Shown here: one piece after another, positions 209 through 29,270 of the stretch
Layout: each line of letters opens with the position of its first letter
How positions within the stretch are numbered: the stretch's first letter is position 1
Position numbers and translations under genes: made by a program
Notes under the pieces: generated by a model
The model's database searches: none
Told to the model about the DNA's origin: nothing
The model's input: the letters and a program-made list of their open reading frames with translations, nothing else
IMG/VR virus record: IMGVR_UViG_2534681978_000021
Direction: 5' to 3' (one strand)
From: a virus
Taxonomy: Duplodnaviria > Heunggongvirae > Uroviricota > Caudoviricetes
DNA length: 39,385 nt

Positions 209-946
209 TCATTCACTCTCTTTCAAACCAGTTTTAACTGTTTGGGGTTTTGGGTAAGGCTGGACTTTGAATAGCTTTATGTTGAGGCGTTTTCTGGCCC
301 TCTTGTTCAGAAACCGGATGTAACGAAACTGTCGGAACTTATGAACACTGGCTCTGTCGATATTAGCCCTCAGATGTTCACCTCGTTGTCCGCCTCGTTT
401 AATGGCATTCCTGCAAATCTCGTGATACCACTCGCCATCAAGTTCATAGAATGTTGATTCATGGCTGCCTACATAATCAAAATTGCTTGCCTGATACACG
501 ACACCAAGACAGCCACAACGCTCATCTGCAAACGACTGAACCCACTGTACCTGCGGATAAAGCTGTCTGATAAGTTTGAGTGCGTAACTGATGGCCCTTG
601 ATTCGGAGTTTCTCGGCATACAGTCATGCAGCCATAACCGGTTAAGCTCCATATATTCGCGGTTCTGCGTACCGGTTACGACGCGCGCTCCACTGTTTGG
701 ATTAAGGGCATAACCCCATTGCATTACGCCAACCAGCTCTCGTTCTGAAAATATACCCAGATGAAGGTAGGAGTTATTTACGAAACGGTGGCTGTAATGT
801 TTATTGACGATGACCAGTCGGGCCAGCCAGCAACTTATTGTCTCAACCCGTAACTCACGGGAGCCATAACCGACGATATTGTCGTTATAGAGAATAAGTT
901 CAGGCGTGCTGATGATACGGGATGTAACTTGTTTTCTGTTCCCCAC
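209..946 (-). CDS. mom: Mom-like DNA modification protein
   Basis: 245-aa ORF at the prophage end, start overlapped by the upstream com-like ORF exactly as in Mu. Confidence 0.85.
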
Positions 947-1100
947 GACAGGATTTCCTTGTGTATGTGGGGTGCTCTGTGGCGCTCGGAGATGTGATTT
1001 GATTGAGGGTTTTACAGCGCGGACATTTTACTTCCAGATAACTGAAACTGGCCCGTGCCAGTAACTTGTTGCAGTGTCGGCACCGTATGTTTCGATACAT
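900..1100 (-). CDS. com: Com-like zinc-finger translational activator of mom
   Basis: 66 aa with CxxC...CxxC (CRHC...CPRC); AGGAGG RBS; 3' end overlaps mom start. Confidence 0.8.
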
Positions 1101-1142
1101 GGCCGCATAACCTCCTGCTTTGTTGATGATATCTTTCTCGCC

Positions 1143-1172
1143 TAATCGATCGACAAAAACGATCGATTCGAT
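1143..1172. promoter_or_regulatory. GATC-containing dyad upstream of com-mom (candidate Dam-methylation-dependent control region)
   Basis: AATCGATCGA ... TCGATCGATT inverted repeat with GATC at 1148-1151 and 1161-1164, about 45-70 bp upstream of com ATG; two more GATC at 1272-1275 and 1283-1286. Confidence 0.45.
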
Positions 1173-1506
1173 GTGTTTAATTGATACAACAAATAGATTG
1201 AAAAGTCATCAACAATGATTCAGGGAGGTGATTATTTACTAAAAGAAAACGAAGACTTAGGGTGTGAAAACGATCATAAAATGATCATTTTATTGACTTT
1301 TTATCCAGTGAAGGTAGGATCGCGCGCATATGTAGTATGTTTCAAATCAACAGGATACTACATAAAAGGGAAACCCAGCATAGCTGGAACTATGCTGGGT
1401 CAATCTGTAAAAACTTGCATCAATGCTTTACTTCGAGCTCGTGGCGTATCCTATGATATTCCCCGGTCTCCTGTAAAGCAGAGATATATCTGTTCAGGCA
1501 GGAAAA

Positions 1507-1713
1507 ATGGATAAACTAACCACAGACCCAAAGTTACAGGCTGCGCGAATTGCAGCTGATATTACAATTGCAGCAATGACATCCACCAGGGGTAACTTTA
1601 CCTCTTTTCATACAGCAGGTGATTCATCCGCTATGCAGTTATGGAACGCGTGCTTTTCTGATGTAATTCGTGCAATCAGCGAGTCAGTTGACCTTCGCGA
1701 ACCGCAAAAATAG
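1507..1713 (+). CDS. hypothetical small protein (uncertain; only plus-strand ORF in the com-upstream spacer)
   Basis: 68-aa ORF with ordinary composition and weak AGGA RBS; overlaps 3' end of a convergent minus-strand ORF. Confidence 0.25.
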   Translation: MDKLTTDPKLQAARIAADITIAAMTSTRGNFTSFHTAGDSSAMQLWNACFSDVIRAISESVDLREPQK

Positions 1714-1876
1714 CGCATCTTGGGGTACACAGGATCTGCATAGCTATCCACATTGCGGTGGCGAAGTTTCGATCCTGTAATGTATCTTCATCAAGTCCTG
1801 AACGTAGCGCATTGATAATTTCCGCGCTTAATCTTTCTAGGCCTTTGGTATCAGGTTGCTTTTTATTCTTGTCCAT
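1676..1876 (-). CDS. hypothetical protein (accessory island)
   Basis: 66 aa from internal ATG at 1876 preceded by AGAGGA RBS. Confidence 0.45.
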   Translation of the reverse strand: MDKNKKQPDTKGLERLSAEIINALRSGLDEDTLQDRNFATAMWIAMQILCTPRCAIFAVREGQLTR

Positions 1877-1951
1877 GATTATTGTCCTCTGATTGGTATA
1901 TAAAGCGCCCATGAAAATAAAACCGACAGGAGAAACTGCCGGTTTGTATTG

Positions 1952-2206
1952 TTACATCATGGTGCTGTCAGTTCCGGGCTGAGCCGGTTCTGGTTGCTCT
2001 GGCTGCGCGTCGGTTTTCGGTTCATTATCAGCATCACTGGCCGCTGCTGCTGGCCCAATAAGTTTTTCCAGCACCTCATCAACGTAAGTGTCGATTTGTG
2101 CCTCAAAATCCTTGCGGACCTGCGCTTTCAGCAACTTATTTACTTCACCGGAATACAGTGCCTGTTTTACCAGGTCTTCAGTGACGGTGCCTTTAATTTC
2201 TGGCAT
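1952..2206 (-). CDS. hypothetical acidic protein with Pro/Glu/Gln-rich C-terminus (accessory island)
   Basis: 84-aa ORF, strong AAGGAGGA RBS. Confidence 0.5.
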   Translation of the reverse strand: MPEIKGTVTEDLVKQALYSGEVNKLLKAQVRKDFEAQIDTYVDEVLEKLIGPAAAASDADNEPKTDAQPEQPEPAQPGTDSTMM

Positions 2207-2241
2207 GTATATCCTCCTTATGCGGGAATAAAGCCCTGCAA

Positions 2242-2427
2242 TCAGGGCTGGGTCGGGTCTTTTGGGAGCGGAGTTGCCTGCGCTGTTTTACTGAGTTTTT
2301 CAGCTGCTGCGTCCTCAATTTTGCGGCGAACATAATTTCTGATGGCCTTATAACCACCACTCACCAGATATAACGCACATACTGCCGTGCAGAAATACAA
2401 TAAAATAAGCTGTAAAAATGTCATCAT
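2242..2427 (-). CDS. small membrane protein, single N-terminal TM helix (accessory island)
   Basis: hydrophobic N-terminus FLQLILLYFCTAVCALYLV; GGGAGGG RBS before ATGATG. Confidence 0.5.
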   Translation of the reverse strand: MMTFLQLILLYFCTAVCALYLVSGGYKAIRNYVRRKIEDAAAEKLSKTAQATPLPKDPTQP

Positions 2428-2520
2428 CCCTCCCAATTATTGACATGGTGTTGACACCGGTAATATCTGTTAGGTAAAAAGGTGCACTGCATTTTTTGCT
2501 TTGGATATAACGATCTTTTT

Positions 2521-2561
2521 GCCGCCGGTTTCTTGTTTTCCCTTACCGGCGGCATTTTTTT
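2521..2561 (+). terminator. GC-rich hairpin followed by T-tract (intrinsic-terminator-like on plus strand)
   Basis: GCCGCCGGT...ACCGGCGGC stem followed by ATTTTTTTA; on the minus strand the hairpin is followed by A-rich sequence, so it is not an obvious terminator for the esterase gene. Confidence 0.4.
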
Positions 2562-2568
2562 ATCCTGC

Positions 2569-4623
2569 TTACGCGTTATTCACTTCCACCACGATACTGT
2601 CAATCAGTACCGGGTAAGTCGCATTTTTAGTGATATCGGTCACGCGCAACTTGTCTGCCGTAAACGTGCCGACCGAAGACTGCGACAGCATGAATGGTGT
2701 CCCGTCCTTACCATCAATGACCGGCGTCACCTCAATACTGTTGTTACCGGCAAAACGGAAGCCCAGCGTATGCCATTCGTTATTAAATGCGCCGAATGAC
2801 CCCAACTTCGTGTTCTGCGCCGTGTTTCCTTTGTGATACATCACGTTAAGGTCTGTGGCATCGCTCTGTACGTAGAACGATGCCAGCAGGTTATGACCGG
2901 CATTTCCTTCCAGAGTAACCCCTTGCGGCAGGGCAGAAACCGGCCAGTACAGCGCCAGTGCGTACTGATTAGCCGTAAGCGCGCCATCGAGTTTAAAACG
3001 ACAACTGACAAGACCACCTTTACCCAGCAGGTCCGCACCATTACCAGCATCATGCTCAAGGTACCAGGGGGCTCTTCCTGTTTCCTTGGTCAGTTTCATT
3101 GCCTTACCCCCGCTGGCTCCGGCATCATCCACGATTTGAGCCTTGCCACCTCCGGCAGCCCAACCCTGTGGTGTCAACCGTCCTTCAGACTCAGATGCCC
3201 GGTAAGCAAATAGCGTACTCATCGTCGTGGTGTCTGCGGGTGGCGTGGACGGTTTTGATGGTGTATCAGGTGACGGCTTCTCATCCGGTGGTGTCACGGT
3301 CTGCCCGCGCATCAGTTCAGCCGTGCGCCCTGCATGGAGCATAATAGCTGAGGCCAGACGGTCTGAAATGACGCCCCTGCGTGCCCATGAGCTGAAATGG
3401 CTGTCACGCTGTGTCGAAACAAAACTGCCCTGGGTTCGGGATGCTGCACCGTAATACCCGACAGCCACAATATCCGGGTCTTCCGCCGGAGCATTCGTTG
3501 GCGTGCTCTGTCCATTCTCATCCGTCAGGAACGGTACAAAGAAAATTTTCTGTGCTTCCTTGCCTTTGTAGCCACCGTATACTGCCTCATATTTATCGGT
3601 GCCAGCGTTTTTCCAGTAATACGTGGTATCACCGCAAATCCACGGCACCGTGGTGGCATTTCCACTCACGCACTGCGCAGCAAGCGGAGCCAGGTCAGTT
3701 CTGAACTGCTGAACCATGGCCGTGAATAAACTATTATGCTGCTGGCTTCCTGAGGCAAGGTCTGCCTCTCCCTGCATCCAGACCACAGCCAGAAGTTTGT
3801 TTTTCGGGTTTTTCGCCAGCGCGACTTTGGTGCGGCTTACCAGGTCCTGATACAGAGGTTTACCGGCCCCCCAGCGTGAAGAATCAGCGGAAGCACCGCT
3901 GGCCTCACTGAATGAGCCGTCGGCTCCAGTGGTGAATGCTGACCCGCCACGACAACAGGGCACCAGAAGTATCCCGGCATTCTGTGGGATATAGGGAAGC
4001 AGTTTTTTGGCAATATGCAACCCCTGACCGACAGTCCCGTACTGGCCTTTTGCCAGATCAGCTTTCGGGTGGTTTATCCCGCTCATATCCTGAACATCAT
4101 GCAGGCAGTGGTCTGCCGGAATGATGTCGTTGTATGTACACGACGTACCGTTGGGCGTTACCGTACTGCGGCGTGCCAGTTGCTTAATGCGTGGGTCCGG
4201 GCGGTCAAACGAATCCGGTAACGGCAGCCCCTCGCCGTAGGCCATGCCATTTGACTGACCCGCGAGAATGACAACAAAGTAATATTCCGGCTCTGAACTG
4301 CTGCCATTCGTGCTACCGGAAGGCCCGGCGTTATCCGGTGCATTCCAGTCGGAGGGCGTGAGCGTTCCGGCCACGTCAGATGTGATTGGAATGATGCCAG
4401 TCACGCCTGAACTGGTGATTTCTGCACTGGGATTACCGGATACCGGCATTACCCATAATGGCTCTTTCGTGCTGAAGCGGATCACGCAGTCTGCGAAGGT
4501 GATCCCCCCTTTATTACCCGAAGGGCGGAAAGGGCTTTCAATAAATGCCACCGTGCCACCGGCAACCTTGACTGAAAACTCTCCGGGCATGGCGGAGAGC
4601 ATTTTCCACTTGGAGTCTGACAT
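2569..4623 (-). CDS. three-module SGNH/sialate-O-acetylesterase-family carbohydrate esterase (N-terminal ~110-aa domain, esterase core, Pro/Thr/Ser-rich linker, C-terminal ~230-aa domain)
   Basis: 684 aa; GQSNG motif at residues 122-126 and downstream WMQGEAD block typical of the SASA/SGNH esterase fold; PSPDTPSKPSTPPADTT linker. Confidence 0.7.
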   Translation of the reverse strand: MSDSKWKMLSAMPGEFSVKVAGGTVAFIESPFRPSGNKGGITFADCVIRFSTKEPLWVMPVSGNPSAEITSSGVTGIIPITSDVAGTLTPSDWNAPDNAGPSGSTNGSSSEPEYYFVVILAGQSNGMAYGEGLPLPDSFDRPDPRIKQLARRSTVTPNGTSCTYNDIIPADHCLHDVQDMSGINHPKADLAKGQYGTVGQGLHIAKKLLPYIPQNAGILLVPCCRGGSAFTTGADGSFSEASGASADSSRWGAGKPLYQDLVSRTKVALAKNPKNKLLAVVWMQGEADLASGSQQHNSLFTAMVQQFRTDLAPLAAQCVSGNATTVPWICGDTTYYWKNAGTDKYEAVYGGYKGKEAQKIFFVPFLTDENGQSTPTNAPAEDPDIVAVGYYGAASRTQGSFVSTQRDSHFSSWARRGVISDRLASAIMLHAGRTAELMRGQTVTPPDEKPSPDTPSKPSTPPADTTTMSTLFAYRASESEGRLTPQGWAAGGGKAQIVDDAGASGGKAMKLTKETGRAPWYLEHDAGNGADLLGKGGLVSCRFKLDGALTANQYALALYWPVSALPQGVTLEGNAGHNLLASFYVQSDATDLNVMYHKGNTAQNTKLGSFGAFNNEWHTLGFRFAGNNSIEVTPVIDGKDGTPFMLSQSSVGTFTADKLRVTDITKNATYPVLIDSIVVEVNNA

Positions 4624-4708
4624 CGTCTTTTCTGCCTGTTTCTGAATTAAACAGAGTCAGAATAGCGACCGCTGAAAAATATGTGTTTTGCGGAAATTCA
4701 AAAAAGCG

Positions 4709-5281
4709 TCACGGTACTTTTGGTGACGGAGCTGGTGAGGCAGGAAAATAACGATAAAGGGTGGAAAGGCCAATATCAAATATCAGTGCGATTTGTTTAC
4801 GGGACTCGCCATTAGCCAGCAAACGGGCGATTTGCTCCCGCTCTTTCTCTGTCAGTTTCTGAGGTCTGCCGCCATGACGCCCCTGAGCACGGGCAGCAGC
4901 AAGACCCGCGCGTGTACGTTCAATAATGAGTTCCCGCTCCATTTCCGCCAGCGCGCCCATTATATGGAAAAAGAAACGTCCCATGGGAGTGGATGTATCA
5001 ATATTGTCCGTAATGCTGCGGAAGTTAACGCCGCGTTGCCGGAGTTCTTCTGTTAAAAGGACAAGGTGCTGCATACTGCGTCCAAGGCGATCCAGTTTCC
5101 AGACCAGCAGGGTATCCCCTGGCCGGAGTCGCTTTAATGCGCGTTTAAGTCCGGGACGCTCCCTTGTCTTACCGCTTATTCTGTCTTCGAAAAACAGCTC
5201 ACATCCTGCACATTCCAGCGCATTTCTTTGTAGCGCCGTATTCTGGTCATTTGTTGACACCCTGATATACCCAATCAGCAT
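4709..5281 (-). CDS. gin: Gin-family serine DNA invertase
   Basis: 190 aa, N-terminus MLIGYIRVSTNDQNTALQRNA... and GRFFFHIMGALAEMERELIIERT nearly identical to Mu Gin. Confidence 0.95.
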   Translation of the reverse strand: MLIGYIRVSTNDQNTALQRNALECAGCELFFEDRISGKTRERPGLKRALKRLRPGDTLLVWKLDRLGRSMQHLVLLTEELRQRGVNFRSITDNIDTSTPMGRFFFHIMGALAEMERELIIERTRAGLAAARAQGRHGGRPQKLTEKEREQIARLLANGESRKQIALIFDIGLSTLYRYFPASPAPSPKVP

Positions 5282-20616: not shown

Positions 20617-20793
20617 TCCGGCAGCATAAGCCGGTGTTTTTCGGGGCCGGTTTTGCGGGACTTCAGAAAGTGCTGACAGGGGAAAAATGAGAAAGGCGCT
20701 TCACGCAGATTTTAAAGCCCGTTAAATACAGGTTAGAAAATCACGACACGCGCCTGAAGAGGGTAAGGCAATGCGTTTGTATACCTTAAACCA
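20617..20793 (-). promoter_or_regulatory. intergenic region upstream of the I-like gene; candidate late promoter
   Basis: 177-bp non-coding gap in an otherwise tightly packed operon, at the position of Mu late promoter P_I. Confidence 0.3.
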
Positions 20794-28776: not shown

Positions 28777-28847
28777 TGTTACGCTGTCTCATGGTGTTCT
28801 CTGAGCCAGCGTAACCGTGGAAAAAAGGGGGCAGGATTTGCGGAATA

Positions 28848-29270
28848 TCAGAAAAGCCGGGGCTGCGTGCGCTCCTGATGCAGGCGACGCTGGTTGCGGA
28901 TAACGGAGTAAATCTGCGTCTCTGACATCTGGTAATGGCGGCGCAGGGTTTCAATTTTTTCACCCTGGCTCCAGCGGGAAAAAATCTCATTATTGCGCAG
29001 TTCGGTGAAAAGGGATTCACCGACCGGGAGATAATAACCACGCCCGCCCATGTACCCGGCCTGTGCGGCCGCAACCTTACGGGCAAGCATTCCCGCCTGA
29101 GCAGATTCAATCCCCTGACGGTGCAGTTCAGCACTGATCACATCAACCAGGTCACGCAGCGTGCCGGGCCAGTTCTTTTTCAGCTCATCATCAGGAATAT
29201 CATCCAGACGGTCAATCAGCGCGTGCAGCTGTTCGCTGTCACCAAACATGCTCATCTGTGTTTCAGCCAT
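28848..29270 (-). CDS. Mor/C-family transcriptional activator
   Basis: 140 aa with C-terminal HTH (ETQIYSVIRNQRR), between gemA and lys. Confidence 0.7.
   Translation of the reverse strand: MAETQMSMFGDSEQLHALIDRLDDIPDDELKKNWPGTLRDLVDVISAELHRQGIESAQAGMLARKVAAAQAGYMGGRGYYLPVGESLFTELRNNEIFSRWSQGEKIETLRRHYQMSETQIYSVIRNQRRLHQERTQPRLF

Follow-up and report, generated by a model that had tools for sequence, protein, structure and literature searches.

Introduction

The sialate O-acetylesterase NanS of Escherichia coli (YjhS; structure 3PT5) is a single-domain protein that has an export signal and acts outside the cytoplasm. Its phage-encoded relatives, the NanS-p proteins of lambdoid phages such as L0105/z1466 of 933W and vb_24B_21 (= gp84) of phi24B, have no signal peptide and combine an N-terminal DUF1737 domain (an alpha helix plus a three-stranded sheet), the SASA/NanS core and a C-terminal DUF6645 domain with four aromatic residues, with Pro/Thr/Ser-rich linkers. 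Here we analysed a 39,385-bp stretch of viral DNA (IMG/VR record IMGVR_UViG_2534681978_000021; "the window" hereafter means this whole stretch), a Mu-like prophage in which a predicted NanS-p gene with a different head domain lies between gin and com.

In phages that encode Shiga toxin (Stx), nanS-p lies between stx/Q and the holin gene and is read from pR'. It is a late gene that is induced with the prophage, and its product is released at lysis (PMC10462455, PMC8065619). Genes of the DUF1378 and DUF826 families follow it and precede the holin (PMC10462455), and in lambdoid prophages genes for the small RNAs (sRNAs) PasA and PasC are found between the esterase and the holin (bioRxiv 10.64898/2026.05.13.724894). 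Every tested NanS-p allele of EDL933 and O104:H4 was active as an esterase, and in experiments lambdoid alleles de-O-acetylated Neu5,9Ac2 and mucin glycans (review PMC8065619). In phi24B, cryo-electron microscopy showed gp84 to be an abundant virion protein, whose DUF1737 domain forms a hexamer on the capsid hexons and whose enzyme part is later clipped off (bioRxiv 10.64898/2026.04.10.717836).

Like the window, the phages Mu, D108 and SfMu have gin, com and mom as flanking genes, and they also have the GATC cluster in the control region of mom. In Mu the gin-com junction has no esterase cassette; the spacer from the gin stop to the com start is 94 bp (AF083977) and contains Pmom. The gin-mom PCR product given in the SfMu paper is 1.5 kb.

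Results

The gin-com junction

The window contains a whole Mu-like prophage, reversed in orientation, and is 100% identical to chromosomal DNA of E. coli FORC_069, NCCP15648 and FORC_029. Judged by the host flanks the prophage extends from about 81 to 39319, i.e., ~39.2 kb, which is 2.5 kb more than the 36.7 kb of Mu. The transposase genes A and B and the repressor stand at the high-coordinate end and are followed by the tail, baseplate and invertible fibre genes, by gin, and finally by com and mom. Identity to the Mu counterparts is 68% for the major capsid protein (Mu T) and 40% for a homologue of the late activator C (28848-29270). The junction is framed by the following features:

4709-5281, minus strand: gin, a 190-amino-acid (aa) open reading frame (ORF) with Resolvase and HTH_7 matches
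900-1100, minus strand: com
209-946, minus strand: mom
1144-1168, no strand assigned: GATC cluster of the mom regulatory region, from an alignment with the sequence upstream of Mu Pmom, with ATCGATCG...GATCGATT kept

From gin to com there are 3608 bp here, as against the 94 bp of Mu, so extra DNA at this junction relative to Mu, as noted in the initial annotation, is indeed present. Because the GATC cluster is kept at ~1144-1168, this extra DNA sits between gin and the mom control region.

The esterase and its modules

The first and largest gene after gin is by homology a NanS-p-family sialate O-acetylesterase, and its product can be divided as follows:

2569-4623 (stop codon included), minus strand: predicted NanS-p-family sialate O-acetylesterase, 684 aa, with Pfam, PHROGs and PDB matches
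4384-4623, minus strand: N-terminal domain, aa 1-80, predicted all-beta and weakly cupin-like, in the position of DUF1737 in lambdoid NanS-p
4288-4383, minus strand: disordered Ser/Gly/Pro/Thr-rich linker, aa 81-112, of low model confidence and low conservation
3334-4287, minus strand: NanS-like SGNH/SASA catalytic domain, aa 113-430, from a phmmer match to 3PT5
3220-3333, minus strand: Pro/Thr/Ser-rich inter-domain linker, aa 431-468, read from the sequence and variable among alleles
2572-3219, minus strand: C-terminal lectin-like jelly-roll domain DUF6645, aa 469-684 (216 aa), from a match to 6YP6

The sequence alone had suggested an SGNH/SASA enzyme with three modules that resembles prophage NanS-p, and the profile and structure matches agree with this. 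Pfam SASA (PF03629) was found at aa 117-312 (E 1.5e-13) and DUF6645 (PF20350) at aa 533-649 (E 4e-67), and PHROGs assigns the protein to phrog_143 (E 2e-296). When solved structures were searched with phmmer, aa 110-428 matched E. coli NanS 3PT5 (E 1.8e-117) and aa 469-683 matched the NanS-p C-terminal domain 6YP6 (E 1e-96). The catalytic domain is homologous to NanS along its full length, at ~65% identity, and compared with NanS the phage protein adds N- and C-terminal modules and has no signal peptide.

The motifs pointed out earlier are in place, GQSNG at aa 122-126 and WMQGEAD at aa 282-288, as are the Pro/Thr/Ser-rich linker (aa ~441-467) and the C-terminal domain after it (aa 469-684). 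Ser124 of GQSN and His409 of the SHF block (RDSHF) align with the same residues of NanS and are invariant in our 20-allele alignment; from the alignment we take these columns to be the catalytic Ser and His of NanS. Block IV has the form RDSH here and RSSH/RASH in NanS-p (PMC10462455). Y554, Y559, Y584 and F654 correspond to Y510, Y515, Y540 and F611 of 933W/vb_24B_21, so that all four aromatics proposed as the sugar-binding site of the phi24B/933W C-terminal domain (PMC10462455) are kept.

Relatives were detected by tblastn in 349 phage records, mostly Stx-converting, at ~65% identity and from residue ~94 onward only; 933W NanS-p likewise aligns at ~65% identity from residue 94 on. From the 65-90% identity to active alleles we infer that the window enzyme de-O-acetylates Neu5,9Ac2 and mucin sialic acids. 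A likeness to esterase-type tailspikes, also suggested initially, found no support: the protein lacks adaptor and spike modules, and its sole "tail" match (phrog_25867, E 1e-6) is weak and covers aa 211-312, a part of the SASA fold.

The C-terminal module varies in some Mu-type alleles. The STEC299 allele (L010, 739-2871) encodes 710 aa with a C-terminal module only 34% identical and a poly-Ala end, and four IMG/VR loci (L043-L046) have no detectable DUF6645-like region. These divergent or absent modules suggest that the lectin-like domain is also swappable.

The N-terminal domain

The N-terminal part is what distinguishes the window protein from the lambdoid alleles. DUF1737 (PF08410), which scores 4e-18 in 933W and 2e-15 in phage 434, gave no match in the window protein at E ≤ 0.1, and homology to lambdoid alleles at both the DNA and the protein level starts only at about residue 95-110, in agreement with the unrelated N-terminal region of ~110 aa described at the outset. 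In place of DUF1737 there is an unrelated all-beta domain of ~80 aa.

Its occurrence is narrow. A full HMMER scan of 1.84 billion representative sequences with aa 1-105 returned, besides pieces of this very protein, only a single remote relative (30% identity, E 5e-6), a Salmonella protein encoded downstream of gin in a divergent Mu-like prophage and likewise continuing into a SASA domain. A word-indexed protein search gave near-identical fragments only, IMG/VR gave only E. coli-type alleles, nothing was found in the GTDB species-representative genomes, and no NCBIfam family matched. The domain was thus found solely fused to this esterase and in Mu-like prophages. In the Salmonella prophage (L012, 9426-9910), gin and the esterase gene are separated by two small ORFs, one of 58 aa with a hydrophobic C-terminus and one of 87 aa with a weak match to an Xre-like antitoxin helix-turn-helix.

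Full-length AlphaFold2 modelling with a 20-row alignment gave a mean predicted local distance difference test score (pLDDT) of 37, and only the model of the N-domain alone was used. In that model, built on a shallow alignment, aa 1-80 form a confident all-beta domain (pLDDT 74-90) and aa 83-107 are disordered (pLDDT < 50). Foldseek against PDB and BFVD found no match below E 1e-3 for it, and the fold gives no functional clue. A metal-binding cupin was considered and ruled out because aa 1-80 contain no histidine.

No other part of the protein is as constrained as this domain, whose ratio of non-synonymous to synonymous substitution rates (dN/dS) is 0.017-0.05, compared with 0.09-0.12 for the catalytic domain. 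The linker that follows (aa 81-112) is the least conserved segment between lineages, at 38% identity.

The cassette and its distribution in Mu-like prophages

Downstream of the esterase are two small genes on the same strand:

2242-2427, minus strand: DUF1378 single-transmembrane protein, 61 aa (60 aa from the second ATG); PF07125, E 1e-32; phrog_494; ribosome-binding site (RBS) GGGAGGG
1952-2206, minus strand: DUF826 acidic protein, 84 aa; PF05696, E 4e-15; phrog_311; RBS AGGAGG
1920-1945, minus strand: intrinsic-terminator-like hairpin (10 pairs) and T-run after DUF826, from a terminator scan, with the tail TATTTTCATG

DUF1378 homologues were found in 309 phage records, nearly all of them Stx or lambdoid phages, and p43 of 933W, encoded between nanS-p and holin S, also has DUF826. 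Since the same two families follow nanS-p in Stx phages, esterase-DUF1378-DUF826 can be regarded as one cassette that is shared by two phage types. What differs is its place, which in Stx phages is the interval from stx/Q to the holin and in the transposable Mu-like myovirus the position after gin.

The gene order gin-esterase-DUF1378-DUF826-(variable)-com was seen in every Mu-like prophage of the clade that we inspected, including the Sp18-type prophage of O157:H7. The annotated loci came from eight unrelated strains and differed in insertion site: in a FimD/PapC-type fimbrial usher gene downstream of elfD, in ydcF or flgL, next to xdhB, in dcuC or hofC, near torY, or inside lambdoid prophages. 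The order was the same in Mu_JNE082796, which is inserted in an Stx2c phage, and Mu-type synteny was found in all 34 of the 34 IMG/VR contigs that encode the N-domain. The com-mom pair of the window is present in 233 of 5426 complete E. coli genomes (~4%), and the N-domain region is of the Sp18 type in 205 genomes and of the window type in 28. Because 205 + 28 matches 233, the cassette is present in essentially every prophage of the clade and is not a sporadic island.

The Sp18-type O157:H7 prophage and Mu_JNE082796 have a homologous N-domain. They carry a second allele of the whole gin-to-DUF826 block, with a differing variable segment before com. Prophages with one or the other allele are 92-100% identical in their backbone proteins but only 57-81% identical, at the protein level, in the gin-to-DUF826 block. 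By these sequence comparisons they are two old alleles of one module and not a recent gain. The region had been read initially as an accessory island; with the same gene set fixed at this junction clade-wide, this reading has to be given up. The comparison with other Mu-like genomes thus yields the same gene set at the junction, for which no structural role is known. A search of the literature accessible to us found no paper that ties nanS-p to Mu-like phages.

In the O157:H7 strain FRIK2069 (L008, 7985-14586) the prophage lies inside dcuC, directly beside the sialic-acid catabolic operon nanR-nanATEK-nanQ. Only ~3 kb thus separate the esterase gene from the pathway in which its product is consumed, which is probably a coincidence.

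A late-promoter-like element upstream of the esterase

When the intergenic spacers of the late region were compared, a 20-bp box, TTTCTGAnnTnCCGCAAAnC, was found to be common to those upstream of lys (28835-28854) and gene I (20650-20669). These two spacers are the positions of Mu Plys and PI, and in both the box is followed after 23 nt by TACGCT or TATGCT. A pattern, TTTCTGANNTNCCGCAAANC, was derived from the lys and gene I sites and the whole window was searched with up to two mismatches allowed. One further match was obtained, at 4685-4704 on the minus strand, with one mismatch (0.03 expected by chance), and it lies immediately upstream of the esterase:

4659-4706, minus strand: late-promoter-like element in the 85-bp gin-esterase spacer, with the box CTTTTTTGAATTTCCGCAAAAC at 4706-4685 and a -10-like TATTCT at 4664-4659

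Here the box is followed after 22 nt by TATTCT, which shares the form TAnnCT with the hexamers at lys and gene I, and the distance from box to hexamer is alike at the three sites. Both the box and the spacing are kept in the divergent Sp18-type lineage, in which the rest of the spacer differs; the box is kept in Mu_JNE082796 as well. No sigma-70-type promoter stands out upstream of the esterase. We infer a late promoter that depends on a C-type activator, i.e., the esterase apparently has a late promoter of its own, whereas in Stx phages it is read from pR'.

The box is also still there in the lineages of strains M3 and CI5, where gin is absent between the esterase and the tail-fibre assembly genes (L003, 5945-6250; L004, 5933-6238) and the fibre region is presumably fixed. 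The region upstream of the Salmonella esterase has ATTATTCCGTGCC, which is similar to the Mu Plys box ATAATCCCGCACC.

The Mu C-box, TTAT-N6-ATAA, was tried as a guide and was uninformative, with 17 matches against 9.6 expected. Its sole perfect copy, the dyad TTATGCGGGAATAA at 2218-2231 between DUF1378 and DUF826, resembles the C-binding dyad of Mu Pmom, TTATGCCCCAATAA. It abuts the RBS of DUF826 and is too close to serve as a promoter of that gene.

Exchange of the enzyme body with lambdoid alleles

Over aa ~95-684 the window protein is 87-90% identical to DUF1737-type lambdoid proteins, with long identical stretches; the abundant lambdoid allele P0065, also of DUF1737 type, is identical over more than 190 residues. 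The other Mu-type allele, at 66%, is far less close. DNA homology with lambdoid prophages begins at about codon 105-120. In addition, two IMG/VR contigs have a Mu-type N-domain and catalytic domain joined to the lambdoid p43, holin S and endolysin R genes. These hybrid loci imply that a Mu-like prophage and a lambdoid one have recombined within nanS-p. As far as the sequences tell, the enzyme body is exchanged between phage types and the Mu-like backbone retains its head domain. The preprint on the Pas sRNAs (10.64898/2026.05.13.724894) independently proposes that recombination takes place around the esterase gene.

The hybrids (L013, 754-5136; L018, 3545-7746) combine a Mu-type backbone and a 100%-identical catalytic domain with a lambdoid C-terminal domain. 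In L018, com-mom is inverted and ~6 kb away.

The variable segment and other features

The remaining features between the esterase and com are:

2521-2553, plus strand: hairpin of 9 bp, G+C-rich, with a T-run, read from the sequence as a terminator facing the esterase 3' end
1486-1914, no strand assigned: variable 430-bp segment outside the cassette, containing a 66-aa ORF (minus strand) and a convergent 68-aa ORF
1676-1876, minus strand: 66-aa ORF, RBS AGAGGA
1507-1713, plus strand: conserved 68-aa ORF, kept open, its 3' end overlapping the 66-aa ORF
1215-1514, plus strand: remnant of a reverse-oriented 154-aa gene (phrog_26524; called a pseudogene by PGAP), from a comparison with L008, 6422-6886

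At the same place as the 2521-2553 hairpin, a reverse-strand terminator is annotated in phage 434. A sub-threshold Rfam match to the sRNA Esr41 at 2481-2563 on the plus strand (22 bits against a gathering score of 102) was rejected, as the homologous loci have no match, and was treated as a resemblance to the terminator. Esr41 is encoded on SpLE1 (PMC5286369).

Homology with the Sp18-type cassette stops at the 1920-1945 terminator. The 430-bp segment beyond it stands in place of the 3' part of the Sp18-type 154-aa gene and is found in 17 of 5426 complete E. coli genomes. Three small genes had been assigned to the island: all three ORFs exist, and those for DUF1378 and DUF826 belong to the cassette, but the 66-aa gene is part of this separate, rare segment. 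The strong RBSs noted initially for the small genes are seen there; the esterase itself has a weak one. Of the codons in the 66-aa ORF, 12 differ synonymously and 3 non-synonymously from those of a 92%-identical copy (L010), which suggests a real gene under purifying selection. Neither it nor the 68-aa ORF matched a family in Pfam, NCBIfam or PADLOC, and the 68-aa ORF has only a weak PHROGs match (phrog_25148, E 0.003). An anti-phage defence cargo was discarded, as PADLOC at E ≤ 0.01 matched no defence family for any of six ORFs.

Between DUF826 and the mom control region, the reverse-strand genes differ from lineage to lineage, with, e.g., an ORF of 86-100 aa in L002-L004. The intact Sp18-type 154-aa gene (L008, 6422-6886) has a phrog_26524 N-terminus and a CxxC...CxxC C-terminus. 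On the other side of com, some Mu-like prophages, such as Mu_JNE082796 (L005, 7221-8472; LC727881.1; also hits H226 and H227), have a 350-aa DNA cytosine-C5 methyltransferase in place of mom, an exchange of the DNA-modification gene under com control.

Motifs like TTTGATACCGA are repeated at both prophage ends and are probably transposase-binding sites. Mu packages its DNA by headful; the many independent insertion sites indicate that the present prophage is still mobile despite its 39.2 kb.

Discussion

We consider it probable, at roughly three chances in four, that the region is the NanS-p cassette as carried by the Sp18-like clade of Mu-like prophages in E. coli, made late and released at lysis. 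The late-promoter-like element, taken together with the lack of a signal peptide, suggests an enzyme that is made in the lytic phase and set free when the cell lyses. The cassette would have its own promoter, which shares the 20-bp box with those of lys and the head genes and is presumably activated by the C homologue, and would be transcribed late in lytic growth, the transcript running to the terminator after DUF826. The esterase would then leave the cell at phage lysis and take 7/8/9-O-acetyl groups off mucin sialic acids, as the lambdoid alleles do experimentally; the outcome may be to feed surviving lysogens or to help the particles cope with mucus. Its catalytic and C-terminal parts are continually traded with lambdoid alleles by homologous recombination.

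It is also possible, though on balance doubtful, that the ~80-aa beta domain anchors the enzyme to Mu-type particles, with the hexons of the T-type capsid or a tail component as its docking site. The domain is a candidate because of its N-terminal position, the flexible linker behind it, its restriction to one phage backbone and its extreme conservation. The capsid decoration by NanS-p shown in phi24B makes an enzyme carried on the virion, one of the roles suggested initially, more plausible; the likeness to gp84 is one of position in the protein only, as its docking domain, DUF1737, is absent here.

Several observations weigh against these proposals. The RBS of the esterase is weak, the promoter assignment draws on three sites in one genome and conservation in one other lineage, and a position-weight scan found no matching box at the expected P (baseplate) or mom promoters. 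Phage 434, a lambda-like siphovirus, also has a DUF1737-type esterase, so that the head domain is not strictly matched to the capsid type, and the N-domain may follow the phage type merely through linkage to non-homologous flanks. In addition, lysogens with a lambdoid NanS-p grow on Neu5,9Ac2 (PMC8065619), which also fits a role in lysogenic conversion.

This last role was among those suggested initially. The esterase would come from the lysogen or from a few spontaneously inducing cells, purely for access of the host to O-acetylated sialic acids, and the N-domain would be an oligomerisation or stability module that plays no part in the virion. We find this the strongest competitor, yet a doubtful one. 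The protein has no signal peptide, whereas the chromosomal NanS acts outside the cytoplasm, and the upstream region has a box of the late-promoter type and no evident sigma-70-type promoter. The Stx-phage gene, too, is late and induced with the prophage (PMC10462455, PMC8065619), and so low a dN/dS requires that the N-domain have some specific partner or function.

The N-domain might instead be a second carbohydrate-binding module, with another glycan specificity, and not a virion anchor. This seems to us unlikely: the fold similarities are generic and weak, none falling below E 1e-3 in Foldseek. The domain is almost invariant while the lectin-like C-terminal domain varies and is even swapped among alleles, a pattern that better fits a conserved protein partner than a variable glycan.

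Least of all do we expect a receptor-modifying enzyme, borne on the virion or released, that removes O-acetyl groups from O-antigen or an O-acetylated K1-type polysialic capsule and so aids adsorption or blocks superinfection, as esterase tailspikes do: this was raised as a possibility for NanS-p (PMC8065619), and the weak "tail protein" match, a 29%-identical match to an Arthrobacter phage minor tail protein and the neighbouring invertible tail-fibre region would agree with it, but the catalytic domain is ~65% identical to NanS, a dedicated 9-O-acetyl-Neu5Ac esterase, Pfam and PHROGs detect no tail-adaptor or trimeric beta-helix module, the gene stands after gin outside the baseplate/fibre operon, and the enzyme and its lectin domain are 87-90% identical in phages with quite different receptors.

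Public databases already contained the sequences themselves as well as the enzyme family and the small genes, and the surprise is to that extent moderate. NanS-p has so far been studied almost solely as a companion of Shiga toxin in lambdoid phages. Here the same enzyme, with a different head domain, is found in another phage type that is unrelated to the first, namely a Mu-like transposable myovirus that also occurs in O157:H7. Where the dosage of sialate-esterase genes in pathogenic E. coli is counted by way of DUF1737, this allele will be missed. The shared catalytic region forms a recombination bridge from Mu-like to lambdoid prophages and is a possible source of chromosomal rearrangement. 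The capsid-anchor finding of phi24B becomes testable in a second system. If the docking idea is true, the particles of Mu-like phages would carry a mucin sialate O-acetylesterase on their surface, as those of the podovirus phi24B do via DUF1737, and the same freely exchanged enzyme would be fitted to structurally different virions by a swap of the anchor alone. Virion-displayed glycan enzymes with swapped anchors would then be a general strategy of gut prophages.

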